Positions 9,393-24,183 of a stretch of 64,000 bases of DNA are shown in pieces (position 1 is the first letter of the stretch; each line of letters opens with the position of its first letter). Source of the DNA: a virus (lineage: Duplodnaviria > Caudoviricetes); the IMG/VR virus record IMGVR_UViG_3300037760_000038, positions 7,275 through 71,274 of that record; one strand, written 5' to 3'. A program made the translations under genes and the position numbers. Under the pieces are notes generated by a model, which worked only from the letters and a program-made list of their open reading frames with translations, searched no databases and had not been told where the DNA came from.

Positions 9393-9584
9393 ATGGCGAA
9401 GCTCACCGGCGGTCAGAAGGTCATCGCACCGGCTCTGGTTGGGGGCGGCACCGTTGAAGCCCGATTCGTTCGTTACGAGCGCAAGGTTCAGGGCGGTCGC
9501 TGGGTTAACCTGGTGGTCGTGCGTTACCGCGTCGGTGGGGCTACCTTCTCTTTCGTCCCCCGTCTGGTCAAGGCCACTCGCTGA
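9393..9584 (+). CDS. small basic beta-rich (SH3-like) moron protein
   Basis: own promoter, RBS AGGAG and terminator. Confidence 0.75.
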   Translation: MAKLTGGQKVIAPALVGGGTVEARFVRYERKVQGGRWVNLVVVRYRVGGATFSFVPRLVKATR

Positions 9585-9599
9585 CCCCCCCCCGCAAGC

Positions 9600-9634
9600 C
9601 GCAGCCCTCGCCAGGTGACCTGGCGAGGGCTGCG
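9600..9634. terminator. bidirectional terminator
   Basis: CGCAGCCCTCGCCAGG/CCTGGCGAGGGCTGCG. Confidence 0.8.
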
Positions 9635-9640
9635 AGGTAT

Positions 9641-10948
9641 TCACTTGGCGAGATCGACCATTCGCCCACGAATGTACTCGTCGGCGTCAGGATCGCGCTT
9701 CGGGCGCAGTTCGAACGACGCACGATGAAGCTTGTCCCAGGGCACCCCCTCGGGTCCGCCGTCCAGTTGCTGACGGACCAGCAGCTTGGTTTCCTCGACC
9801 AAGTTACCACTCGGGTTCTGCGCGGCGTCGTGGACCAGTTGCCACGCGACGGCCGGATAAACGCCTGACAGCACGAGTGCGTCCTTGATCTCGGCCGACA
9901 ATGACACGTTCGCAGCCTGCCGGGCGTTCTCGGCCATCCGCTTTGTGCTGACGTGCAGGCTCTCGACCAGGTTCACGGCCTTGGTGACCATGTAGTGCGT
10001 TAGCGTCGCGGCAGTCGGCAGCGCTACCCGCTCCACGCTCGAGTGCGAGATGTCGCGCTCGTGGTGGAGCGCCTGACTTTCCATGACCGGCACGATCTGC
10101 GCCCTTACCAGTCGAGCCAGCCCGCACAGCTGCTCCGACGTGATGGGGTTCCGCTTGTGCGGCATTGCGCTTGACCCACGCTGGCCGACAAAGAACCCTT
10201 CGGCCAGCTCACCGACCTCAGACCGCTGACCAAGCCGGATCTCGGTTGCCAGCGACTCGATGACCGTGGCCAGTTGCGCGCACGCGTGAACGAAGTCGGC
10301 GTAGCCGTCTCGGTTGGCGACCTGCGTCGCGGTGTTCGGAGCGGCCAGCCCGAGCGACTGACACAGCGCGCGCTCTTGATCCCACGTGATGCGCTTGTAG
10401 TCGCCGACCGGGCCAGACATCTTGCCCTCGACCCAAATGTGCCCTGCGCCGAATCGACGTTCGGCGCGGTAAGCCAGGTCTGCGAAATTGGCTACCCGCC
10501 ACCCCCACGTAGTGAGTTCAGCCCATTGGCCGTGAGTGCGACCGGGGCGGATGGCGTTCCAGTGCTCGAGCGCGTGAAGCGCCAATGCGCCCGTGAAGCG
10601 CTCGGCTGCGTCGAAGATCAGATTACGGGACTCCTTGACGCGTAGGGCATATGCGGTGTCCACCAGGTCGGACGAGGTGACGTGCCGGTGAACCCACTCA
10701 GCGGCGTGATCTGGCAGGTTCGACCGCCAAGCTTCGACGAACGCCACCACATCGTGCCGGGTGTGCTGCTCGTGTGCTTCGATGTGATCGCGGGTCGGCC
10801 AGCGTTCGGCGTCCATCATGAGGTCGAGCACTGGCTGCGGCGCTCCGAGCGCTCGAGCCATGTTGAACTCGACCAAAGCCCACAACTTGGGCTTGTTGTC
10901 TTCTGACCACACTTCGCGCATTTCGGGTGTGGTGTACCGATCCAGCAT
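9641..10948 (-). CDS. purB: adenylosuccinate lyase
   Basis: TRHDVVAF, HRHVTSSDLVDT, GRTHGQWA, GKMSGPVG and fumarate-lyase signature GSSAMPHKRNP. Confidence 0.95.
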   Translation of the reverse strand: MLDRYTTPEMREVWSEDNKPKLWALVEFNMARALGAPQPVLDLMMDAERWPTRDHIEAHEQHTRHDVVAFVEAWRSNLPDHAAEWVHRHVTSSDLVDTAYALRVKESRNLIFDAAERFTGALALHALEHWNAIRPGRTHGQWAELTTWGWRVANFADLAYRAERRFGAGHIWVEGKMSGPVGDYKRITWDQERALCQSLGLAAPNTATQVANRDGYADFVHACAQLATVIESLATEIRLGQRSEVGELAEGFFVGQRGSSAMPHKRNPITSEQLCGLARLVRAQIVPVMESQALHHERDISHSSVERVALPTAATLTHYMVTKAVNLVESLHVSTKRMAENARQAANVSLSAEIKDALVLSGVYPAVAWQLVHDAAQNPSGNLVEETKLLVRQQLDGGPEGVPWDKLHRASFELRPKRDPDADEYIRGRMVDLAK

Positions 10949-10964
10949 ACGCTCCTCTTTTCGG

Positions 10965-11249
10965 TCAGGTCAGCTTGCGTGAGGGGTGATGGAACGAGAT
11001 GGTCTTGATGGTTCCCGACACCAGAGAAATCCGGCTGCTGTTGGTCCATCCCGCCTGGTCGAATTCGGCAGTGAACGCTCGGTGCACCAGGTCCCGAGTT
11101 GCCACAGTCAGTGGAACCAGCAACACGATGGCCAGCTTCTTGGGTCGATACGAAACCCACACCTGGTTTTCGACTCCAGGTGCCTCAGATCGGACGATCT
11201 GCATTGCGCGGTCTATGACCGGCGCTGCGTCTTCAGCCAGCTTTGTCAT
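10965..11249 (-). CDS. hypothetical protein, paralog of 8430-8732
   Basis: leaderless start just after the 11256 promoter; shared motifs. Confidence 0.7.
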   Translation of the reverse strand: MTKLAEDAAPVIDRAMQIVRSEAPGVENQVWVSYRPKKLAIVLLVPLTVATRDLVHRAFTAEFDQAGWTNSSRISLVSGTIKTISFHHPSRKLT

Positions 11250-11255
11250 AGCACT

Positions 11256-11285
11256 ATTTTATCACGCAGTTTGCCCGGTGCGCAA
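11256..11285 (-). promoter_or_regulatory. promoter (drives 10965-11249 and purB)
   Basis: TTGCGC-18-TAAAAT. Confidence 0.8.
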
Positions 11286-11328
11286 GTAAGCCCCCCGGCT
11301 TTGGCAGCCGGGGGGCTCGTCGTTGACG

Positions 11329-11484
11329 TCACTTGAGATCACGAAGTTTGATCTCCTCGGTATCGCCGGTCGCGGGGTCAGTGACCGTAACCATGTCATC
11401 GCCCTGGTGTCGAGTCGAAGCGTCGGTCACCATGACGTTCGTGGGTCGATCGCCCTGATCTTTTCGGTCGGTGAACCATCCCAT
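11329..11484 (-). CDS. 51-aa hypothetical protein (not in the ORF track)
   Basis: RBS GAGGAGG; MGWFTDRKDQ...EEIKLRDLK. Confidence 0.55.
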   Translation of the reverse strand: MGWFTDRKDQGDRPTNVMVTDASTRHQGDDMVTVTDPATGDTEEIKLRDLK

Positions 11485-11620
11485 CTGTGTGCACCTCCTC
11501 GGTGTGCGCCGTTACCTACCAGCGTACACCCGACTTGCCGTCAGGGCAAGTAGGCGCACAGGAGCGCGCGGCATCACGCGGGGGCGCACGAGTGCCGTTA
11601 TAAAGCTGTTATTCTCCGAA

Positions 11621-11685
11621 CTTGCGTCAACCGCAAGGGGGTGATAAAATTGTATTTAGAGGTTGAGGGAAAGCCCAAGACCACA
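11621..11685 (+). promoter_or_regulatory. promoter, perfect palindrome and copy 2 of the 41-bp repeat
   Basis: TTGCGT-17-TAAAAT; CTTGCG-N5-CGCAAG at 11621-11637. Confidence 0.85.
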
Positions 11686-11702
11686 AAAACGAGGAGCCTA
11701 AA

Positions 11703-11870
11703 ATGTGGGGAACCTTCGAGACCGGTGACAAGGTCCAGTTCAGCCCGATCGTTGGCGGTGCCAAGGTCACCGTAACTCGGACCACGCACGGCGGTAACCG
11801 TGTCCACTTCACCTGCGACGAAACCGGCAAGGCCAGCTGGACCTACAGCCGGGAGCTGACCCGCCGCTGA
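11703..11870 (+). CDS. 55-aa SH3/KOW-like moron protein (not in the ORF track)
   Basis: RBS GAGGAG; MWGTFETGDKVQFSPIVGG...; followed by a terminator. Confidence 0.75.
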   Translation: MWGTFETGDKVQFSPIVGGAKVTVTRTTHGGNRVHFTCDETGKASWTYSRELTRR

Positions 11871-11885
11871 AACCCCCCCCCCACA

Positions 11886-11921
11886 CCGAAGCCCCCGACC
11901 TCTTCAGGTCGGGGGCTTCGG
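11886..11921. terminator. bidirectional terminator
   Basis: CCGAAGCCCCCGACC/GGTCGGGGGCTTCGG. Confidence 0.8.
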
Positions 11922-11930
11922 CTTGCGTCG

Positions 11931-12794
11931 TCAGCGGCCGGTCGAACCGAACCCACGATCTCCGCGTGCCTTGCTGCGGACCTGACCCCACACGGGCTGG
12001 AAGTCCTGGCCGGGGGCATGGTGCAGAATCAGCTGCGCGATGCGCTGTCCCCGCGTGATCTTCACGTCGTCGTCGCTGATCGACACCACGGGAGCGAACA
12101 GCTCACCCGTGTACCCTTCATCGATCACGCCGACCGTGGGGGCAACCAGTAGGTTGTGATTCTTGAGCGTCGAGCTGCGGCCGGTGATCTGAGCCCACAT
12201 GCCTTCCGGGATGTCCACGGACACGCCGCACGACACCACGCCCTGCCCGCGCGCCGGAATCACGGCGTCCTCAGCGGCGTACAGGTCGTATCCCGCGTCG
12301 TCGTTGTAGCCCTTGGTCGGCAGGGTGGCGCCAGTCTCGCGCGCCTCGAACACGATGGGCTCCGGCTGCTGGGTTGCCAGCAGCGACATGCGGTCACGCA
12401 GCCAGTCGAGACCAGCAGACACGTCATCGGCGGTCATGGGTACGGCCTTGACGTTGTCGCTGTCAGCCCACCCCGCGACAGCCCATGAACTCTGGCCCAT
12501 GTCGGTCACCAGCAGGACCGGCTTGAATCGGGCCGTCAGGTACCCGATCTCAGCCGGAACGCCAACAGTCTTAGCGCCCGAGGGCAGGAACGCCACCCCC
12601 CCGGTTGCCTCGTCCATCGCGGCCTGATTGATTCGGCTGACCGCTCCGTGGGGGGTGGCGCCGACCGTGAACGCCGACTTGGGGTCGTAAATGGTCCAGT
12701 CCATCGCGGCCATCTCGCCTTCAGCGCCGAGTACCAGCGATGTGTCCGCCGATCCGAAGTCGATAGGCTGAGCCAGGTAAACGGTAATGCTCAT
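11931..12794 (-). CDS. dut: nucleoside 2-deoxyribosyltransferase-like domain fused to trimeric dUTPase
   Basis: N-domain VYLAQP..YDP..PAEIGY..KPV; C-domain dUTPase motifs AGYDL, GRSS, GVIDEGYTGE, RIAQL, RGDRGFGSTG. Confidence 0.85.
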   Translation of the reverse strand: MSITVYLAQPIDFGSADTSLVLGAEGEMAAMDWTIYDPKSAFTVGATPHGAVSRINQAAMDEATGGVAFLPSGAKTVGVPAEIGYLTARFKPVLLVTDMGQSSWAVAGWADSDNVKAVPMTADDVSAGLDWLRDRMSLLATQQPEPIVFEARETGATLPTKGYNDDAGYDLYAAEDAVIPARGQGVVSCGVSVDIPEGMWAQITGRSSTLKNHNLLVAPTVGVIDEGYTGELFAPVVSISDDDVKITRGQRIAQLILHHAPGQDFQPVWGQVRSKARGDRGFGSTGR

Positions 12795-12857
12795 TGGGTT
12801 TCCCCTCCTTGTAGGGCTCGAACCTTAAATTCGAGCCCTACGGTTGGTGGTTGGCAG

Positions 12858-13646
12858 CTACTTGGTGTCGACGCCCGGCCAGCCGCCTGCGTCTCGGTTG
12901 CGCTGGGCCATCCGGCAGTACACGCCGACATCGTAGATCGTGTCGTCGCTCGGCCGGTCACCCCGCTTCACGGCATCGATCCACCTGCTCATCTTGCCCC
13001 GCAGGTAGAAGAAAATGCCGAGTTCGGTGGCCTCCTCATCGGTGACCTCACGCCCCATGCATTCCGCGAGGTCCCGGCCGATGTCGCGCAGGTCGGTGGA
13101 CCCGTACTCGATGGCCTTGGGCACCACTCGCTCAACTTCATCTTTGGCCTTGTCGAGCCACCAGTCGCCCAACGCCTTCTCGAGCTCCGACCGCAGCAGG
13201 TGACGAGTGTGGCTGACACCTGGACACGTGAACCACTCGGTCCTCGGGCCCGGCCGGTGAAGGTGCCGATCGTGCGCAGTGTCGGGATACGACGTGCACG
13301 GGTGGAACTCTGTGGACACCCCGTTGTGCAACAGTGGCTGGTCCGGGTGAACGTCGCGAACGTGCTTCGCCATCCGCTCCGACAGGTACGCGTCCCCGCA
13401 GAACTCGCAGTTGACGGACCCGGGTCCGTCGCGCTGGGGTTCGGCCCCGGACATCTTCGCGAAGTACGACTGGACCTCCCGCAGGACGCTGGCGCTCGGG
13501 TTGCCGGTCCGCAGATACGACTGTGGGTTGTGGATCGGGTCGTTGAACCGGTACTCGCACATCGCGCAGTCCCTGACGGTTCCGTCGACGTCCGTTGACC
13601 GTTCCGGCGCCAGCGGGTGCGGCGTTACCAGGTTGATCGCACTCAC
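12858..13646 (-). CDS. Zn-finger plus MazG-like (DUF1599-type) nucleotide pyrophosphohydrolase domain
   Basis: C-terminal helical domain with KAIEYG and DTIYDVGVYCRMA; GTGA overlap with the purZ stop. Confidence 0.55.
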   Translation of the reverse strand: MSAINLVTPHPLAPERSTDVDGTVRDCAMCEYRFNDPIHNPQSYLRTGNPSASVLREVQSYFAKMSGAEPQRDGPGSVNCEFCGDAYLSERMAKHVRDVHPDQPLLHNGVSTEFHPCTSYPDTAHDRHLHRPGPRTEWFTCPGVSHTRHLLRSELEKALGDWWLDKAKDEVERVVPKAIEYGSTDLRDIGRDLAECMGREVTDEEATELGIFFYLRGKMSRWIDAVKRGDRPSDDTIYDVGVYCRMAQRNRDAGGWPGVDTK

Positions 13647-14755
13647 GACACCCTCCGGATTCCCGTGGTCGGGGACGTGCCCACGAACCGAACCGGGGCA
13701 CGGGTCTCGATCTCGATGTCGGTGAGATACTTGTCCAGCTCCGATTCCGGCTGGATGATGTCGTCCCGCGTGTTCAGACCAGCCAGAGGCGGGAATACCG
13801 TATCGACCATGGTCAAAGCCAGCCGCACGACCGGGGCCCCGCCGTTGGCCTGGACCGCCCGTCGCACGAGATCGCCGTCCCACTCACCGACACGCCGCAC
13901 CTTCTGCGTTACGGTGGTGCGCTCGGTCGGAAGCCCCAGGGCGTCCCACGAGGTCTCGCCCTTCAGCGGCCCGCTGTTGCCTGCGACTCGGATCGGTCGG
14001 ACCCGTGCGGCCAGCCACACTTCGAACTCGCCCACAGCCGGGTGCCACGGACTCAGACCGGCCATGCTGAGGAAGTCCACGGCCCGGCAGTCGCTCGAAG
14101 TGCACTGCGGGTACCAGCCCGCGTGCTGGCCGAGTCCGTACCCCTGGGTGCCCTCGATCACGACCGTTTGGCCGTCATCGAGCATCCGGGTCAGTGCCCC
14201 GGCGGTGTCGGTGTCGGTGCGGCTCAGAGACCACTTGACGTCACCGAACAGAGGCGCCTCACGCCACACCCTGGCCGCCCGCGCCGCGCCGATGCCCTTG
14301 GCCGTCGACCCGAGCTTGCCGCTCAGCCCGCGCTCGACTTCCTCGGCCACATGCTGCGGCGTGAGGACCGTGGCGCTCGTGTCCACGTGCAGTCGTTCGC
14401 TGACGTTGTACCCCGCCGAGTTCAGCCGGTTGATCTCATCAGTCAGCACTTCCAGATCAACCTCGGAACCAGCCGCGACGACCAGTTCAGCCGCCGGGTT
14501 GCTCACCGCGCCGACCGGCACCGATCGCAGCTTCCATGGATGTCCGATCCACTCGCCGTTGAACAGGTGCTCATCGTTCGGCTGGCATCCCGGCGGACAG
14601 ACGCCAAACACGGTGTGTCCCGCGTTAGGTCCGGCCACTCGGACCACAGCAACGGGTCCGGAGTTGTGTTCCGGCCGAGTCAGCTGATCGACAACCGCTC
14701 CCTTGCCCTCACTGCCGAACTGCGCACCGCTGACGACGATCAGTCTTCCTGCCAT
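13643..14755 (-). CDS. purZ: PurZ0-like 2-amino-deoxyadenylosuccinate synthetase (PurA fold)
   Basis: GAQFGSEGKG (Ser at the PurA catalytic Asp), NAGHT, IEGTQGYGL, YPQCTSSD, RPIRVAG, TTVTQKVRRVG, TMVD. Confidence 0.85.
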   Translation of the reverse strand: MAGRLIVVSGAQFGSEGKGAVVDQLTRPEHNSGPVAVVRVAGPNAGHTVFGVCPPGCQPNDEHLFNGEWIGHPWKLRSVPVGAVSNPAAELVVAAGSEVDLEVLTDEINRLNSAGYNVSERLHVDTSATVLTPQHVAEEVERGLSGKLGSTAKGIGAARAARVWREAPLFGDVKWSLSRTDTDTAGALTRMLDDGQTVVIEGTQGYGLGQHAGWYPQCTSSDCRAVDFLSMAGLSPWHPAVGEFEVWLAARVRPIRVAGNSGPLKGETSWDALGLPTERTTVTQKVRRVGEWDGDLVRRAVQANGGAPVVRLALTMVDTVFPPLAGLNTRDDIIQPESELDKYLTDIEIETRAPVRFVGTSPTTGIRRVS

Positions 14756-14860
14756 TTGCAGTCACCTCCTGCGTGTTACTTGGGCTGGCTCGTTCAGCGC
14801 CGGGTTGCCCATTTCCGGCCGGACGTCGCGCGCGGTGGCGCGACGTTTCGCCGTTGCGGA

Positions 14861-15214
14861 TCAGAGTTCGAAGCCGAGAACTGAAGTCTGCGGCTCCTGA
14901 GTGCTGATCTCGACCACGATGGCCGACAGGTTGCGCACGTTCACGACGACCACCGTGGTCTCGTCGCGGACCGCGAACGCCAGGTGCTCCAGGATCAGCC
15001 GGTCAGCGGCAGCAACGAGCACGTCGATGTTGGCCGCAGCGGTGGTGAACCACTGCCCACAGAACGCTGACGCATCGGCCATCTTGTAATACGTCCGCAG
15101 CCGGACGTGCTCGGTCTCAGCGGTGTTGCGGTGGTTCTTGTCGAACTGAATCACCAGGTCGGCCAGGTCCTGATCGTTCGCGGCCTCGTTCCTCATGGTG
15201 CTGAGCAGTTCCAT
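14861..15214 (-). CDS. hypothetical protein
   Basis: RBS GAGGAG; first gene after the 15252 promoter. Confidence 0.7.
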   Translation of the reverse strand: MELLSTMRNEAANDQDLADLVIQFDKNHRNTAETEHVRLRTYYKMADASAFCGQWFTTAAANIDVLVAAADRLILEHLAFAVRDETTVVVVNVRNLSAIVVEISTQEPQTSVLGFEL

Positions 15215-15251
15215 TTATGCTCCTCAGGTGGTGCGCGGCGGTGTTATGACT

Positions 15252-15281
15252 AGTCTACCACACTACTTGTCACGATCGCAA
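15252..15281 (-). promoter_or_regulatory. promoter of the purZ operon
   Basis: TTGCGA-18-TAGACT; CTTGTC-N5-CGCAAG. Confidence 0.75.
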
Positions 15282-15335
15282 GTGGCCGGTATGAGCCGGG
15301 GCCGTTGCCACGATAGCAACGGCCCCGGGGTGAGG

Positions 15336-15503
15336 TCAGACGACCCGGACGGTCAGGACGTCGGTGATGGGGTTGGTTCCCCCGACCTGACCGATGCTGG
15401 CCATCAGGTCGTTCTCCACGAACTGCACCAGGTCGTCGGTGTCGGTGCCCTCAGGCAGAGTCACGGTCACCTGCACGGTTACGGTCACGTCGCTGTCAGC
15501 CAT
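15336..15503 (-). CDS. 55-aa acidic hypothetical protein (not in the ORF track)
   Basis: RBS AGGAGG; MADSDVTVTVQV...TVRVV. Confidence 0.65.
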   Translation of the reverse strand: MADSDVTVTVQVTVTLPEGTDTDDLVQFVENDLMASIGQVGGTNPITDVLTVRVV

Positions 15504-15584: not shown

Positions 15585-16130
15585 TCACAGCAGTCGGGCG
15601 AGATCACCCGGGGTCACATCGCACGACATTCGGCCGTCGTCGAACAGGGTCACTCCTGCCCACGTGTATATCCGGTCGACAGCCTGCGAACAGATCAGGC
15701 GATCAGACCGCTGAACCCGCCGCTTGACCCACTTCGGCCGGACATAGAACCGGTACATCGCTAGGTAGACGTACGTACCCCAGTTGTACCCCACGCCGAC
15801 CAGTCCTCGGGCCTGCGTTACGATCTTGACCCGCTGTTCCAGCGTGAGAGTGAGGGCCGGTCGGCTGTGGTCCCGGAGAACCCACCGCCGGACCACCGAA
15901 ACCGGCCGATCAGCGTACCGCTCGATGGGCGTGATTACCGCTCCGCCCGGCTGAGCTTCGAACACCGTGCCGTCGTCCAAGACGACTGCCGCGTGAGTCC
16001 ATCTGCTCATGTCGAAGTTGAGCGCTTGGAGCAGCCATACCGCCACCCCCGCCCATCCGCTGATCCGAGTCAGTATGATGTCTCCGGGCTGAAAGTTGAA
16101 ATCGCGCCCGGTTGTGGTGAATCTGGTCAT
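15585..16130 (-). CDS. permuted papain-like NlpC/P60 (YiiX/YebB-like) amidase
   Basis: QPGDIIL, WTHAAV (His before Cys), GYNW, LICSQAV. Confidence 0.85.
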   Translation of the reverse strand: MTRFTTTGRDFNFQPGDIILTRISGWAGVAVWLLQALNFDMSRWTHAAVVLDDGTVFEAQPGGAVITPIERYADRPVSVVRRWVLRDHSRPALTLTLEQRVKIVTQARGLVGVGYNWGTYVYLAMYRFYVRPKWVKRRVQRSDRLICSQAVDRIYTWAGVTLFDDGRMSCDVTPGDLARLL

Positions 16131-16402
16131 ACGGGAACCACCTCCGTTGAGCCCTCGTGGCCGTGGATACTGATCAGGTCGTCCAGGTTCCGATACAGAA
16201 CCAGGCTGGACCGGTCGCCGTGCCACTTCATAACGGCCTCTCCGTTTGGCAACACCGCGATATCGGCAACACTTCCGGTGCCGCTGATCCCCGTGACATC
16301 GCGGTGGCGTTCCAGAGTGTACCATCGGACGTCAGCAGGTGGGTCGCCGTAGGATGCCACGACGATATCCCGCAGTGGCCAGTCCAGTAGCTTGCCTGGC
16401 AT
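16127..16402 (-). CDS. conserved actinophage hypothetical protein (start uncertain)
   Basis: RHRDVTGISGTG..W..S..HGHEG motif; ATGA coupling. Confidence 0.65.
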   Translation of the reverse strand: MPGKLLDWPLRDIVVASYGDPPADVRWYTLERHRDVTGISGTGSVADIAVLPNGEAVMKWHGDRSSLVLYRNLDDLISIHGHEGSTEVVPV

Positions 16403-16416
16403 CTCAACTTGAGTTA

Positions 16417-16899
16417 TCAATAGCCTTGCCCTCTCTTGAGGATTTTTCGACAGTGGAATTCGCCCAGACACTCAGCGTCTTTCGCGTGCCCGCCGTGTCC
16501 GTAGCTGGCCCACTCGACGTGAGGTCGAATCGGTGGTTTGAACTCCCGTTGCTTGAACAGTGCTTTGTGGTCGCGCGGTCGGTACCCCACGCACGTCACC
16601 CCTGCCCGGCGGCACACATGCCGTATCGCGCCGATCATCTGGCTGGTCAAGAATTCCGACCCCTGCTGCTGAGCCATCAGAGCACCCCGCAGCCGAAATT
16701 CTTCGTACACTACCAGAGTCAACCCGCCGCTCGTGATCTCGGCTATCAGATGATCAACGGCGTCAGCCGGGCTGGTATGCACGGCCTCGAAGCACACGAA
16801 ACGGTGCCACTTGGTCAACCCGACGTTGCGATCACCAGGGTCAACAGCCCACCAGTAATCCGGCAGTTCCTCAAACTCGAATTGCTGGTGGGCTGACAT
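16417..16899 (-). CDS. RuvC-like Holliday junction resolvase
   Basis: AVDPGDRNVGL, VVYEEF, HAKDA. Confidence 0.8.
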   Translation of the reverse strand: MSAHQQFEFEELPDYWWAVDPGDRNVGLTKWHRFVCFEAVHTSPADAVDHLIAEITSGGLTLVVYEEFRLRGALMAQQQGSEFLTSQMIGAIRHVCRRAGVTCVGYRPRDHKALFKQREFKPPIRPHVEWASYGHGGHAKDAECLGEFHCRKILKRGQGY

Positions 16900-16912: not shown

Positions 16913-17812
16913 TCACGACTGGGGCTCCGGGGCGCTCTCAGGGGCTGCCGGGTCCTCAGGCCCGTCCGGCTTCTCCTGGAGCCTCCGAACGGCCGTCACG
17001 GGCTGGTGCGAGGTGACGTTTATGACTATGGTCTCACGGGGCTCCGGCTTCCAGTAACGCACGGGCTTGCCCAGCTCCTCAGCATAAGCGACTTCCGCCC
17101 GAGTGCTGTCGCCGACGTATCCGCCGGGTGCGACCACAAGCACTTCGTCACACGCCCGGATTTTGGCACGGTGCAGCTCATCGAGCCGCGCCTTCAGCTC
17201 CTGGGCGTCGTCGGGGTCGGCCCACAGATCGTGCGGCTCCTTGAGGTTACACCCTGGCTTCAGCACCAGGCGCCCGGCCGCTGTCTCACGCCTGTCAGCT
17301 TCGACCATCTCTGACCAAAACCGCGTGGAGCCGGAGATGGTGACGATTCGGTCGATGCCCAACGTGCGCATGGCATCGCGCATCTGCTCGTCGGGGCTGT
17401 TGAAACGAGCACCCTCGAGTTCGTACGTCAGAGCGTTGATGCGTCGGTCGGCGACAGAGGGCTTACCGTGCATAACCTCGGCTTCGGCTTCAGCCCACGA
17501 GGTGAACCGGTAGGCGCGGTCGTCGATGTACACTCGGGCGGCCAGCTTGCGGTTGGTGACCAAGATCAACCCCTGGTCGTTCCAGAACGTGCGGCCGAGG
17601 TCCATGTCGATCGTGACGTTAACGCCGTGCTGAACGAGCCACTGCGCCACCTGCCCCGTTCCGCGCGTGGTGAACACGAACACGGGCTCGGCTGCGGTCA
17701 TTCGGTGCAGGGCGTCGATGGCGCCTTCGACCGGAGAATCGTAAACGCTGCCGTCCTGCCAGCCCTTGGAGTACCGATGGATTACTCCATCGAAGTCAAC
17801 GGCGATGGTCAT
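16913..17812 (-). CDS. HAD-family phosphatase fused to a nucleoside 2-deoxyribosyltransferase-like domain
   Basis: IAVDFDGV, FTTR, YIDDRA; then TISGSTRF..HRAKI..DEVLVV..GDSTRAEVAYA..GKPV. Confidence 0.75.
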   Translation of the reverse strand: MTIAVDFDGVIHRYSKGWQDGSVYDSPVEGAIDALHRMTAAEPVFVFTTRGTGQVAQWLVQHGVNVTIDMDLGRTFWNDQGLILVTNRKLAARVYIDDRAYRFTSWAEAEAEVMHGKPSVADRRINALTYELEGARFNSPDEQMRDAMRTLGIDRIVTISGSTRFWSEMVEADRRETAAGRLVLKPGCNLKEPHDLWADPDDAQELKARLDELHRAKIRACDEVLVVAPGGYVGDSTRAEVAYAEELGKPVRYWKPEPRETIVINVTSHQPVTAVRRLQEKPDGPEDPAAPESAPEPQS

Positions 17813-17831
17813 GGGGCTTGCCTCCTGTTTG

Positions 17832-18101
17832 TCAGTGAAACGGACGCCAGTCACCGGGCCTGGTTGAGATGAACTTAGCAACCCGGCAGTCTAGCTTTTT
17901 GACTCGATAACCCACCAAGTGGCCTTGGGGGTTAGTAGTGAATTCACCGCACTCGCCGCAGTGGTAATGCGTGTTGCGTGGTTGATCGCATTCCGGTTTC
18001 AGACACTGCTGAGGGTCCCGGGTGTGGGCCGAGGGAAGCACCTGGTTGGCAAACTTCCCTCGGCCCACGACGCCGGTACACTCAGAACACCGGCATGGCA
18101 C
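17832..18101 (-). CDS. small Cys/His-rich hypothetical protein
   Basis: HYHCGECG; contains a 15-bp perfect inverted repeat at 18024-18068. Confidence 0.45.
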   Translation of the reverse strand: MPCRCSECTGVVGRGKFANQVLPSAHTRDPQQCLKPECDQPRNTHYHCGECGEFTTNPQGHLVGYRVKKLDCRVAKFISTRPGDWRPFH

Positions 18102-19547: not shown

Positions 19548-21890
19548 CTAGTCCTTGTCGTCCCAGGGGTCGGGCTCGATGCCAAAAGACATCTTGCGTC
19601 CTCTAACGTTGAAATAGTCGGTCAGAACCTTGTTTCCGATGTCGCTGACGTGCTGCGCTTCGGCATGGCCCTCCGGAGTATCATCGTGTTCAGTAATGAT
19701 TGAGTCATGCACCTGAAGTAGCATGCATCCCGGAATCTGGCGCTCAACCTCAAGCATCCAGTAAAGGACCGCTCTCGCGAGGTTGCCCTGAATTACCTGG
19801 TTGGGGGCGCTCACGGTCTTCTCGTCGACAGCGTACCAACGGCGCCAGCCGTCCAGCATCTTGAGGTAGCCACAGCCGCCGCTCCACCGGGTGACCTTCT
19901 GGACCGCCGTGTTGGAGAACTGCTTGATCTCGGGATTCTCAGCCCAAAACCGGTCCTTGGCGGTCTGCACATCGGAAGTCTTCATCTTCATGCCGGATGC
20001 GGCTTCCATCTGAGTCTGGATCGCCTTGACCCCACCCAAGTAGATGATGCCGAAAGTTCCGCGCTTGGCAGCTGATCGCAGGTCCTTGAACTGCGGGTGG
20101 CTCTCGTCGACGCCGAACAGAGCCTTGGTGTTGAGAGCGTGCATGTCCGCTCCGGCATCCAGAGCGTCCCAGAACTTGGTTGACCCGGAAATGACCGTCA
20201 CCACCCGCACTTCACCGGCCGCGAGGTCGTGCTCGAACTGAACGCGCTTGACCGGAGTCTTTTCGCGGCGTCCGTCGTACCGGACGACCTCGGTTCCAGC
20301 CGGAACCTGCCCGATCAGCTGACGGACCGGCACCGCGCCTTCTGGGATCAGTCGGCCGTGTGGGATTGCCTGCGCCTGCCATCGACCCACCGCCAGCCGC
20401 CCGGACTTGGCTCCGCCCTCAGCACCCCCCGCCCGCTCGCGGTCGTTCTTGCACTGCTTGAAGCTGGTGCGGATTCGGCCATCAGGCCCGGTGCGCGCAG
20501 CCCAACCAGTGTACCACTTGGAGTCGGAGTTACGCCGCTTGGTCCACAGCGCGTACTCCTTGGCCCAAGGCTGATCTTCAGCCGCCAGGCGCCGCAGCTC
20601 TTCGATGTCGAGCTTGGGTGCCTTGGTCTTCTCGGTTCGGGCCAACGGCTCCAGCCCTAGACCGTTCTTACCGCCGCACTCGCCGCACGAAGTCGCGCAA
20701 AACCTGGGGTGCGCAAAGTTCCATGCGTCGTTTGCTTGCTTCGCTCGGCTGCAAATCGGCCCGAAGTAGAACCGCTTGGCCTGGTTGGGCTTACTGGGAT
20801 CGAACGGCATGCGGGTGGCGAGTTCGGCGTTGAGCTGGCGGAGCTTCTCGCCCTCAGCCCACGACCTTTCGTGGTCATACGCCACCCCACGCCGTTCCAT
20901 GCGGTAAAGCGTGGTGCGCAGCTCCATTTCGGCTTGGTGGAGCTGCCAGAAGTTGGGCAGAACCGCGCCCGTTTCGGCTGCCTCGATCTGGTACTCCTGC
21001 AACGCGTGACCGAGGGCGGTGTCCTTGGCCGCGTACCGGCCGATCGATCCCGACCAGGGCAGCAGGTCGTACCGCTTGATCAGACCCGTGCCCTGCCGCT
21101 TGAGTTCGGCCTGAAGCTCGTACTCCTCGTCGGTGGAGTCGTCGCCCCACAGTCGACGGGCGGTCGGCTTGAGAGCAGCGGGGTGGAGCGGGTCGATGAG
21201 CTGCTTCTGAGTGACCATGGTGCACCAGATGGTCCGGCGCACGCCGGTCACGTCAGCCAGCGGCTCGAGGGTGGGTTCCATCATGTGGGTCTTTTGGGGC
21301 TGATCGGGTCGCCAGGTTCCCGGCTCACTGTCAGGGTCCCACGCGTACTGGCGATCCTTGATGGTAGAGTCGCCTCCTGCGGCTGCGCGCAGACCGTGGC
21401 GGAAGGTGTGCATGTCGTGCACCGAGTTGTGCATGCCGAGCGAGTCGCGCCGATCGAGCCACGCAATGAGCTTGGCGTACTCGCTGGCGGGAAGGTTGGG
21501 AGCTGCGTCTTCGAGAGTGACCGTTTGGCCCAGAACCTTCGAATACACGGCCAGCAGCCGGTCCTGCTCGGCGCGGGTGATCGGAACGAAACGGCAGACG
21601 CCGGTCTCGGGGTCCTTGATCGGGGAACCCGGCTTGCCAATCAGCGGGCCCTGATCGAAGGGCCAGGCGTAATCGACACGCTCGCCCGGGGACCCATCTG
21701 CGAGCGGCTGCCGGAACGACACCGACACCACGGACACACGGGCGGGGGGCTGAGAGGCCCGATTGCCAGCGGCGAACGGTTCTCCGTCGCCGAACAGGCC
21801 CGAACCTTCGGTATCCACGTAAACGAGCCAGCCCTTGGGCAGCTCCGGCAATTCGATGTCGCCGACGCGAGTTGTTGTGGGGTAGTTCAC
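19548..21890 (-). CDS. family A DNA polymerase (3'-5' exonuclease plus polymerase; DpoZ candidate)
   Basis: VDTEGSG, HNSVHD, YAAKD; motif A DLAAGEVR, motif B RSAAKRGTFGIIY, motif C LQVHDS; no 5'-3' exonuclease domain. Confidence 0.9.
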   Translation of the reverse strand: MNYPTTTRVGDIELPELPKGWLVYVDTEGSGLFGDGEPFAAGNRASQPPARVSVVSVSFRQPLADGSPGERVDYAWPFDQGPLIGKPGSPIKDPETGVCRFVPITRAEQDRLLAVYSKVLGQTVTLEDAAPNLPASEYAKLIAWLDRRDSLGMHNSVHDMHTFRHGLRAAAGGDSTIKDRQYAWDPDSEPGTWRPDQPQKTHMMEPTLEPLADVTGVRRTIWCTMVTQKQLIDPLHPAALKPTARRLWGDDSTDEEYELQAELKRQGTGLIKRYDLLPWSGSIGRYAAKDTALGHALQEYQIEAAETGAVLPNFWQLHQAEMELRTTLYRMERRGVAYDHERSWAEGEKLRQLNAELATRMPFDPSKPNQAKRFYFGPICSRAKQANDAWNFAHPRFCATSCGECGGKNGLGLEPLARTEKTKAPKLDIEELRRLAAEDQPWAKEYALWTKRRNSDSKWYTGWAARTGPDGRIRTSFKQCKNDRERAGGAEGGAKSGRLAVGRWQAQAIPHGRLIPEGAVPVRQLIGQVPAGTEVVRYDGRREKTPVKRVQFEHDLAAGEVRVVTVISGSTKFWDALDAGADMHALNTKALFGVDESHPQFKDLRSAAKRGTFGIIYLGGVKAIQTQMEAASGMKMKTSDVQTAKDRFWAENPEIKQFSNTAVQKVTRWSGGCGYLKMLDGWRRWYAVDEKTVSAPNQVIQGNLARAVLYWMLEVERQIPGCMLLQVHDSIITEHDDTPEGHAEAQHVSDIGNKVLTDYFNVRGRKMSFGIEPDPWDDKD

Positions 21891-22611: not shown

Positions 22612-24183
22612 TTAGCCTTCAAGCCACGGCCAGTCGGCCTTGCGACCCTTCTCGATGAGCGGGATCATGCGGAACGCGGCGTCGTTGAGACCACCGAAGG
22701 TGTGACGGTTTCGGCCGGACATGGCGTGACCGGCACGGTAACCCGCCAGGTTCCACGTGTACATCGGAACGTTGGCCGGGACGCGGTGACCCGGTTCGCT
22801 GCTGACACGCCAGTAGGAGCCGTGCGCTTGCTCGTCGGTGAGGATGACCACCCGATCGTGCCCGTGGTAGTGACGTCGGACGGCCTCCGACGTGTAAGTG
22901 CCACCCAGGTTCCGAAACCGGCCGACGATCTTCAGCACGGACTCAGCGTCATTGAACTCGACCGGCGCTGAGTCCGTGCCGAATTCAACCAGGTCCGCCG
23001 ACTCGGCGCGTAGCGCCAGCGCCGTGCCGAACACTGCTGCGGTGTCGGCGAAGTCGGCGTCAGACTTGGCAGAGTACGAACTGAACATCGAACCGGATCG
23101 GTCTACGAGGACCAGGGTACGGCCCGGCAGAGCCGGAACGTTCCGCAGGGACGCATTGAGTGCCAATTCCAGCGGCCAAGCCCACCGAAGCGACGGAGCA
23201 GACCGGTACGCGTTGAGGAACCGCAGCGGAAACTGACGAGACTTGATGACGTAGGCGCTGTCCGCCAGAGTGACCGCCACCTGCCGCGCGACCTTGTCCG
23301 ACACCCCGGACTCGTCGAAGTTGCGGAGATTGCGCAGCAGGGCCATGTAGCCCATCGTCGGAACCAGCGCCGACCAGAGATCGGCCTTGGGCACCTTCGA
23401 CCCGACCAGGCTGAGCGCGTCTTCCCAGGTCATGCCCGCCTTCCGCAAATTCTCCGAGTTCAGCATGGCGTTCGGATTCACGTCAGCCGACGTTCGCAGC
23501 GTTGCGTTGTGACGGACCATGGTCAGCTCGTCGGGGACGTCCGCACGACGGTCGTAGCGGCGAGCAACGGCGAAGCGGTACAGGGCGTTCTCGGAGTCGT
23601 TGCGGGGGCGCGGGTGGGCCAGCTCGATCACATGCCCGAACCGCAGGCCGTGAGAGGCGGTGTCATGCTTGAGCAGCGAGTACTCGTTGTACAGTCGGCG
23701 GATGGCGTCGATAAGCCCACGCTTGACCGACATCGGGACCTCACGGCCGTAGGTCTGAATCCAGTAGCCGAGCAGCTCGCCCGGCTCATCGGCGCGCTGG
23801 AGAACAGAATCGACGACCTGGCGATTGAAGCCGTGCTCGTCGGCCTCACGGCGTGCGTGGACGAATTCGGCAGCGCCGAGAACGGCAGCGGTTCGAAGGT
23901 TGGCGTCGTTGCGTAGCCAACGCAGCAGACCAGCGGTCCACTTCGGGTCGCTGACCGCCAGCTCGCGCAGCAGGATGCGGAACCGGCTGTCGCGGTCGGA
24001 AGCCGACTCATAGAACGAAGTCTGGCCGACCATGTTGGACACAGCCAGCAGGAACAGCTCGGACTTGTGGTCGCGGGTGAAGCCGGGAGCACCCTCGTGG
24101 GTGGTGGTGTCCGGCGTTGACGACACCGACGTGACGGGAGCGGACCCAACGGCGCGCACGCCCGGCTTATTGAATCTAGACAT
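22612..24183 (-). CDS. TROVE domain Ro60/Rsr RNA-binding protein
   Basis: THEGAPGF, FYESA..RD.RF, MTWEDALS, MGYMALLRNLRN, SRQFPLRF; vWA DRSGSM and ILTDEQ. Confidence 0.93.
   Translation of the reverse strand: MSRFNKPGVRAVGSAPVTSVSSTPDTTTHEGAPGFTRDHKSELFLLAVSNMVGQTSFYESASDRDSRFRILLRELAVSDPKWTAGLLRWLRNDANLRTAAVLGAAEFVHARREADEHGFNRQVVDSVLQRADEPGELLGYWIQTYGREVPMSVKRGLIDAIRRLYNEYSLLKHDTASHGLRFGHVIELAHPRPRNDSENALYRFAVARRYDRRADVPDELTMVRHNATLRTSADVNPNAMLNSENLRKAGMTWEDALSLVGSKVPKADLWSALVPTMGYMALLRNLRNFDESGVSDKVARQVAVTLADSAYVIKSRQFPLRFLNAYRSAPSLRWAWPLELALNASLRNVPALPGRTLVLVDRSGSMFSSYSAKSDADFADTAAVFGTALALRAESADLVEFGTDSAPVEFNDAESVLKIVGRFRNLGGTYTSEAVRRHYHGHDRVVILTDEQAHGSYWRVSSEPGHRVPANVPMYTWNLAGYRAGHAMSGRNRHTFGGLNDAAFRMIPLIEKGRKADWPWLEG

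Follow-up and report, generated by a model that had tools for sequence, protein, structure and literature searches.

Phages whose genomes contain 2-aminoadenine (Z) in place of adenine must make dZTP and must also exclude adenine from their DNA. How the second of these tasks could be accomplished without the dATP triphosphohydrolase DatZ is the question raised by a gene of an uncultivated phage, represented by the 71,274-bp IMG/VR virus record IMGVR_UViG_3300037760_000038. Bases 7275–71274 of this record were analyzed (64,000 nucleotides, hereafter the window). The gene encodes, in a single open reading frame (ORF), an N-terminal domain resembling nucleoside 2-deoxyribosyltransferases (NDTs) and a C-terminal dUTPase. 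An original prediction, made from the sequence alone, had proposed that the N-terminal domain may hydrolyze dAMP or exchange A for Z, thereby substituting for DatZ. On the strength of homology, the gene very probably encodes a DmtZ-DutZ fusion, the enzyme with which Z-genome phages of the PurZ0 type remove adenine and salvage Z, operating by the published scheme. As this fusion was described in February 2026 (Poubanne et al., NAR; PMC12884076), the window protein is one more, divergent member of a known family.

The assignment draws on the biochemistry of two members of that family, for which the 307-aa "dUTPase" of Arthrobacter phage Wayne (ALY10777.1) and two separate genes of Gordonia phage Ghobes were expressed (PMC12884076). 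DutZ converted dATP, dGTP, and dUTP to the deoxynucleoside monophosphates, and DmtZ hydrolyzed dAMP to adenine (PMC12884076). DmtZ also transfers deoxyribose-5-phosphate to 2-aminoadenine, and the combination of this transfer with hydrolase activity is unique to the enzyme; the isolated N-terminal domain of the Wayne protein was itself catalytically active (PMC12884076). Mutagenesis of Ghobes DmtZ identified Tyr6, Asp12, and Glu103 as essential, and kcat/Km was lowered about 100-fold by N77D and about 10-fold by P57A (PMC12884076). Together with a structural model, the mutants assign Asp12 to contact with the 6-NH2 group of adenine, Pro57 to water exclusion, and Trp124 to a lid contributed by the partner subunit (PMC12884076). 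Among PurZ0 genomes, dutZ was found in 98 of 98 and dmtZ in 85, with the two genes fused in 77 of these 85 (PMC12884076). In Wayne-like phages with Z genomes, an NDT as well as a "dUTPase/NDT dual protein" had been flagged independently in a 2025 preprint (10.1101/2025.10.22.683976).

All of the motifs on which the original prediction was built are present in the window protein. In the N-terminal half these are VYLAQP (residues 5–10), YDP (36–38), RINQAAM (54–60), PAEIGY (80–85), and KPV (91–93), and residues 5–102 match the Pfam family Nuc_deoxyrib_tr (PF05014; 25.9 bits, E 1.2e-5), with 27.8 bits in a six-frame search. An AlphaFold2 model of residues 1–140, based on an alignment of 20 relatives, reached a predicted local distance difference test (pLDDT) score of 86.8 and a predicted template modeling (TM) score of 0.83. 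Searched with Foldseek, the model matched NDT (8qc0), MilB (4jem and 4ohb; TM 0.74), human and rat DNPH1/Rcl, and BcmB at TM values of 0.6–0.74, which bears out the anticipated NDT fold. The same kinds of structural match (DNPH1/Rcl, MilB, and NDTs) were reported for Wayne DmtZ (PMC12884076). With DNPH1/Rcl, MilB, BcmB, and the class I/II NDTs, the window domain has in common a Rossmann-like fold, a catalytic Glu on a GxPxE segment, and an N-terminal Tyr. However, it is 15–22% identical to them, it carries Asn at the position that is usually Asp, and a fused dUTPase is absent from all of these proteins.

The agreement with DmtZ extends to individual residues. Ghobes Y6, D12, P57, N77, V98-G99, E103, and W124 align with Y6, D12, P38, N56, V77-G78, E82, and W104 of the window protein, and all of the latter are invariant in 20 metagenomic relatives that are 47–71% identical overall. 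The catalytic triad, aligned to Ghobes Tyr6/Asn77/Glu103, is present as Y6/N56/E82 with Asn instead of Asp, and the predicted catalytic Glu can be named as E82. The Asn had also been taken as a sign of altered specificity, a reading that needs refinement. This residue matters for catalytic efficiency, as the N77D mutant indicates, but adenine selectivity is ascribed to Asp12 (PMC12884076), which corresponds to D12 here. A homodimer prediction for the DmtZ domain, in which the lid Trp comes from the partner, scored 0.12 relative to a mark of 0.42 and was used neither for nor against the assignment.

The C-terminal half retains the five motifs of an intact dUTPase, namely DAGYDL, GRSS, GVIDEGYTGE, RIAQL, and RGDRGFGSTG. 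Residues 156–286 match Pfam dUTPase with 95.5 bits, the domain scores 113 bits with TIGR00576 (cut-off 102.55), and its best solved-structure match has an E value of 8.5e-25. In a maximum-likelihood (ML) tree, 26 Dut sequences of PurZ0 phages, including those of the window, Wayne, and Ghobes, formed one clade (support 97/94), with five canonical phage dUTPases outside it as a small, long-branched outgroup. The nearest phage relatives of the domain all belong to PurZ0 phages (bit scores of 97–229), followed by canonical dUTPases at about 70–80 bits. Columns specific to the DutZ clade are likewise kept in the window protein, i.e., a Trp before motif II, GRSS with Gly for the canonical Pro, and GELF. 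The original prediction is also to be refined with regard to the dUTPase half, which is no bystander: in the characterized homologues it acts as the dATP/dGTP diphosphatase and thereby supplies the NDT half with dAMP, and by analogy the window domain would do the same.

The genomic setting points in the same direction. Upstream of the fusion on the same strand lies purZ, with one gene, here called gene X, in between. In order of transcription, the minus strand carries a family A polymerase, an RNase T-like exonuclease, small genes, purZ, gene X, the fusion, two small genes, and a PurB-like lyase. The window PurZ contains GSEGKG, with Ser at the position of PurA Asp13, and groups in an ML tree with the PurZ0 proteins of Wayne and Ghobes (support 100/99). 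Its identity to these two is 49–50%, versus 28–31% to the PurZ-type proteins of Vibrio, Klebsiella, and Bacillus phages. The Asp of its TMVD motif is likewise retained, in contrast to NFCN in the Vibrio and Klebsiella proteins and NFAN in the Bacillus protein. Judged by these sequence features, it is a GTP-type PurZ0 and not an ATP-type PurZ.

Six-frame searches of the whole 71-kb record gave no DatZ-type match to HD (PF01966) or YfbR-like (PF12917) domains and no match to MazG, DUF550, or DUF5664. In PurZ phages such as S-2L, dATP is removed by DatZ, a dATP triphosphohydrolase with an HD domain, which resembles the fusion in this physiological role. Nevertheless, its fold and chemistry are unrelated and the fusion lacks an HD domain, making the two analogues and not homologues. 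The co-occurrence of the fusion with purZ0 in phages without datZ, which had been proposed as a check, was observed. A tblastn search with residues 1–139 recovered 113 phage records (105 from Arthrobacter, 5 from Streptomyces, and 3 from Gordonia phages), all belonging to genera whose phages carry PurZ0. The corresponding PurZ search recovered 105 Arthrobacter, 5 Streptomyces, 6 Gordonia, and 18 Microbacterium records, the last two groups at 44–64% identity, with the two sets of counts matched by genus and not by accession. On the tblastn evidence, DmtZ is a nearer relative of the N-terminal domain than the other NDT-like proteins of phages, and the domain appears restricted to PurZ0 lineages.

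Comparison with named relatives places the protein within this family. Wayne DmtZ-DutZ is alike in domain order, critical residues, location downstream of purZ0, absence of DatZ, and membership in the DutZ clade. In contrast, the Wayne protein (gp53) is 36–38% identical over its full length and has a longer N-terminal part with several insertions, and two genes separate it from purZ, with DUF5664-1 following purZ0 where the window has gene X. Ghobes DmtZ (AOE44404.1) and DutZ (AOE44406.1) possess the same two activities, the residues defined by their mutagenesis are kept in the window protein, and an X-domain gene (45% identity) directly follows purZ0; unlike in the window, dmtZ and dutZ are not fused, and a small ORF separates the two genes. 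The closest sequenced relatives are found in the Hiyaavirus phages Keanu, Hiyaa, Spocter, and Galactica (58–61% full-length identity; about 60–61% for Keanu gp67), which have the order purZ, X, fusion and, further on, PurB. They differ in that the fusion is annotated only as a dUTPase and that a longer N-terminal part makes their gene X larger (450 aa in Keanu). No biochemical characterization of the Hiyaavirus fusion proteins was found.

Keanu and five metagenomic loci likewise have a single gene between purZ and the fusion, and a PurB-like gene downstream of the fusion is also present in Keanu and metagenomic relatives. When the phage collection was searched by megablast with the 5.2-kb purB-purZ region, only a 214-bp, 74% identical match to Streptomyces phage Galactica was returned; the phage has no close cultured relative at the DNA level. 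It is an actinophage related to the Streptomyces Hiyaavirus phages.

From the characterized homologues, the following activities may be proposed for the window protein, together with the presence of Z in the phage DNA. DutZ would strip pyrophosphate from dATP, as well as from dGTP and dUTP, and so lower the dATP pool. The resulting dGMP would be available as the PurZ0 substrate, and dAMP would pass to DmtZ. There, Glu82 would serve as the nucleophile, placed by Tyr6 and Asn56, and Asp12 would read the 6-amino group of adenine. DmtZ would cleave the glycosidic bond of dAMP via a Glu82-linked intermediate to release free adenine or, alternatively, would move the deoxyribose-5-phosphate to free 2-aminoadenine to give dZMP. 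PurZ0 and the phage PurB would make dZMP de novo, with dZTP incorporated by the DpoZ-like polymerase, and the whole set would keep adenine out of the phage DNA without DatZ. The idea that dAMP hydrolysis or A-for-Z exchange takes the place of DatZ is thereby supported by analogy, given the biochemistry of the Wayne and Ghobes orthologues and the critical residues and clades shared with them.

Several observations weigh against this assignment. The N-terminal domain falls short of the PF05014 gathering threshold of 28.8 bits and is therefore a superfamily-level relative outside the curated family. The DmtZ domain is about 35% identical to its counterparts in Wayne and Ghobes, and the DutZ domain about 44%. 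The record is 87% complete by CheckV estimate, so a DatZ gene could lie in the missing part. In addition, the DutZ subclade of the window and Keanu carries a two-residue PT insertion just before motif III (APTVGVID) and, shortly after this motif, a Ser where the DutZ of Wayne, Ghobes, and Microbacterium phages and the canonical enzymes have Asn. Neither the insertion nor the Asn-to-Ser change is found in the sister subclade (P0014, P0015, and P0019) or in Wayne and Ghobes DutZ. In trimeric dUTPases, the hairpin at motif III forms the base pocket. Because this hairpin is remodeled, the nucleotide preference of DutZ may differ in the window subclade and may have shifted away from that of the Wayne and Ghobes enzymes.

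The changes flanking motif III also fit a reading in which the fold and module are the same and the chemistry is different, with the NDT domain acting on dGMP, dZMP, or dUMP (like DNPH1) or on nucleosides and the dUTPase half having a shifted specificity. Specificity already varies in the family, as Ghobes DmtZ cleaves dZMP in addition and Wayne DmtZ does not (PMC12884076), and for an NDT encoded on metagenomic dZ contigs the substrate is a nucleoside, dA (bioRxiv 10.1101/2025.10.22.683976). Such a departure is nonetheless unlikely, since the adenine-recognition Asp12 is invariant, V77-G78 is kept at the phosphate-pocket positions (V98-G99) of the Ghobes enzyme, and the module and its genomic context are otherwise those of the characterized phages. 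A plainer view, that the gene encodes an ordinary housekeeping dUTPase with a non-catalytic N-terminal extension for oligomerization or regulation, would agree with GenBank, in which every cultured-phage homologue is labeled as deoxyuridine triphosphatase only, with the dUTP hydrolysis of DutZ domains, and with the sub-threshold Pfam score. It is very improbable in view of the invariance of the catalytic Tyr, Asn, and Glu and of Asp12 across such divergent relatives, the activity of the isolated Wayne domain, and the confinement of the domain to PurZ0-carrying phage lineages. Because the two domains are separate genes in Ghobes-like Gordonia phages, it might also be supposed that two adjacent genes were joined by a sequencing or assembly error. 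However, the same architecture occurs as a single ORF in 110 phage records and in 20 independent metagenomic protein clusters (288–300 aa), with alignments continuous through the linker; thus, the fusion is neither chance nor an assembly artefact, and this explanation deserves almost no weight. The DmtZ-DutZ assignment is preferred here, and the features belonging to it are collected in Table 1.

Table 1. The dmtZ-dutZ fusion gene, its parts and upstream signals, and associated genes (positions in the window)
Feature	Position	Strand	Description and basis
dmtZ-dutZ fusion gene	11931..12794	-	287 aa, one ORF; ATG start; stop codon 11931–11933; ORF list, Pfam and NCBIfam matches
DmtZ domain, residues 1–140	12375..12794	-	NDT-superfamily fold; Y6, D12, P38, N56, V77-G78, E82, W104
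Linker, about residues 141–149	12348..12374	-	Length and sequence vary among relatives (alignments)
DutZ domain, residues 150–287	11934..12347	-	Trimeric-type dUTPase; five motifs complete
Shine-Dalgarno-like AAGGAGGGG	12802..12810	-	Ends 7 nt upstream of the ATG; read from the sequence
Perfect 12-bp GC-rich hairpin	12811..12841	-	Within the 63 nt that separate gene X from dmtZ-dutZ; ribosome-binding site immediately after
Gene X, 262 aa	12858..13646	-	GTG start codon and purZ stop codon overlap (GTGA); N-terminal part rich in Cys and His; C-terminal domain of 110 aa, conserved, with four helices
purZ0-type 2-aminoadenylosuccinate synthetase, 370 aa	13643..14755	-	NCBIfam PurZ NF038379, 331 bits (cut-off 300); phrog_1211
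PurB-like adenylosuccinate lyase, 435 aa	9641..10948	-	Lyase_1; TIGR00928, 311 bits, just under the 326-bit cut-off
Family A DNA polymerase, DpoZ candidate	19548..21890	-	DNA_pol_A; best NCBIfam model phage_DpoZ_2, 187 bits, below the 350-bit cut-off

The hairpin in the spacer ahead of the fusion gene has a predicted RNA folding energy of -28.4 kcal/mol (z -4.0) and is unique in the window. No U tract follows its stem, so it is not a classical terminator, and a terminator scan did not flag it; a role in RNA processing or stability, or in modulating translation, is conceivable. A consensus scan of 9400–15400 found no sigma-70-like promoter, and the four terminator-like matches in the same interval correspond to chance level.

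Gene X may be a further part of the system. Over its C-terminal 110 residues, it resembles the ends of two proteins of related phages, with 84% identity to Keanu gp66 and 45% to Ghobes gp51. The domain was found in 31 records of the phage collection (18 Microbacterium, 6 Gordonia, 5 Streptomyces, 1 Micrococcus, and 1 Curtobacterium), directly after purZ0 in every case among the matches listed. It occurs in all PurZ0 lineages seen except the Arthrobacter phages, which hold DUF5664-1 at that position. A profile search gathered 945 clusters at 50% identity, including one protein (P0180) in which PurZ is fused to X. The AlphaFold2 model of the domain consists of four helices (pLDDT 91), the third and fourth of which begin with the conserved motifs EExxE and DDxxxD. 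These motifs are reminiscent of all-alpha NTP pyrophosphohydrolases.

Searches for a named family of the X domain were negative. Nothing was found in Pfam, NCBIfam, PHROGs, or a profile search against PDB sequences, and hhalign detected no similarity to Wayne DUF5664. No PDB structure was matched by Foldseek with E <= 0.001 (iMazG ranked first, with an E value of 1.6 and a probability of 0.28), the wide VIA-align search gave only generic helical hairpins (Z <= 6.5), and all matches in the ESM Atlas were unnamed clusters of viral proteins, one of them with DUF1599 on 14% of its members. As its basis consists of the motifs, the gene position, and the signature of the family, a MazG-like reading of X is a lead and not a result. 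Tentatively, the Hiyaavirus-like module might comprise purZ0, gene X, and dmtZ-dutZ, with X acting in the place of DUF5664-1 as a further Z-pathway component, e.g., in dGMP supply or dATP removal as a divergent NTP pyrophosphohydrolase of the all-alpha type, and with the preference of DutZ perhaps shifted as well; we hold this extension to be possible but doubtful. Neither gene X nor the phage PurB is mentioned in the NAR paper (PMC12884076).

Besides these genes, the window contains another domain of the NDT superfamily, encoded about 2.2 kb upstream of purZ. The ORF at 16913–17881 (minus strand, 322 aa) combines an N-terminal domain like HAD phosphatases (residues 18–136, phrog_1238), which is 47% identical to a "polynucleotide kinase" gene of Streptomyces phage KimJongPhill, with a weak NDT/DUF4406-like C-terminal domain (residues 178–304). 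The latter scores 16 bits with PF05014 and shows 30% identity with an Anabaena phage A-1(L) protein annotated as "deoxyribosyltransferase". This combination looks unique, since matches in phage records and protein databases span at most 45% of the ORF. The ORF was considered as a second DmtZ and rejected, its NDT-like match being weak and its relatives different. The small ORFs at 16127–16899 of the window have no Pfam match. In all five metagenomic loci examined, a PF26761 (Acb5) gene is located a few genes upstream of purZ. Elsewhere in the window, the minus strand encodes a 523-aa TROVE (Ro60-like) domain protein at 22612–24183 (PF05731, E 5e-17) and, near the left end, a vWA-TerF-like protein at 2096–2983 (PF10138, E 9e-36) and a NERD (nuclease-related domain) protein at 1090–1845.

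For PurZ0-type phages, DmtZ-DutZ provides the way of excluding adenine without DatZ and, in addition, a second, salvage-type route to dZMP. The window adds a divergent, uncultivated member to this family and confirms the conservation of the module in soil metagenomes. Gene X and the altered base-pocket hairpin of DutZ are less explored parts of the system, and they are of interest for the engineering of Z-DNA synthesis.

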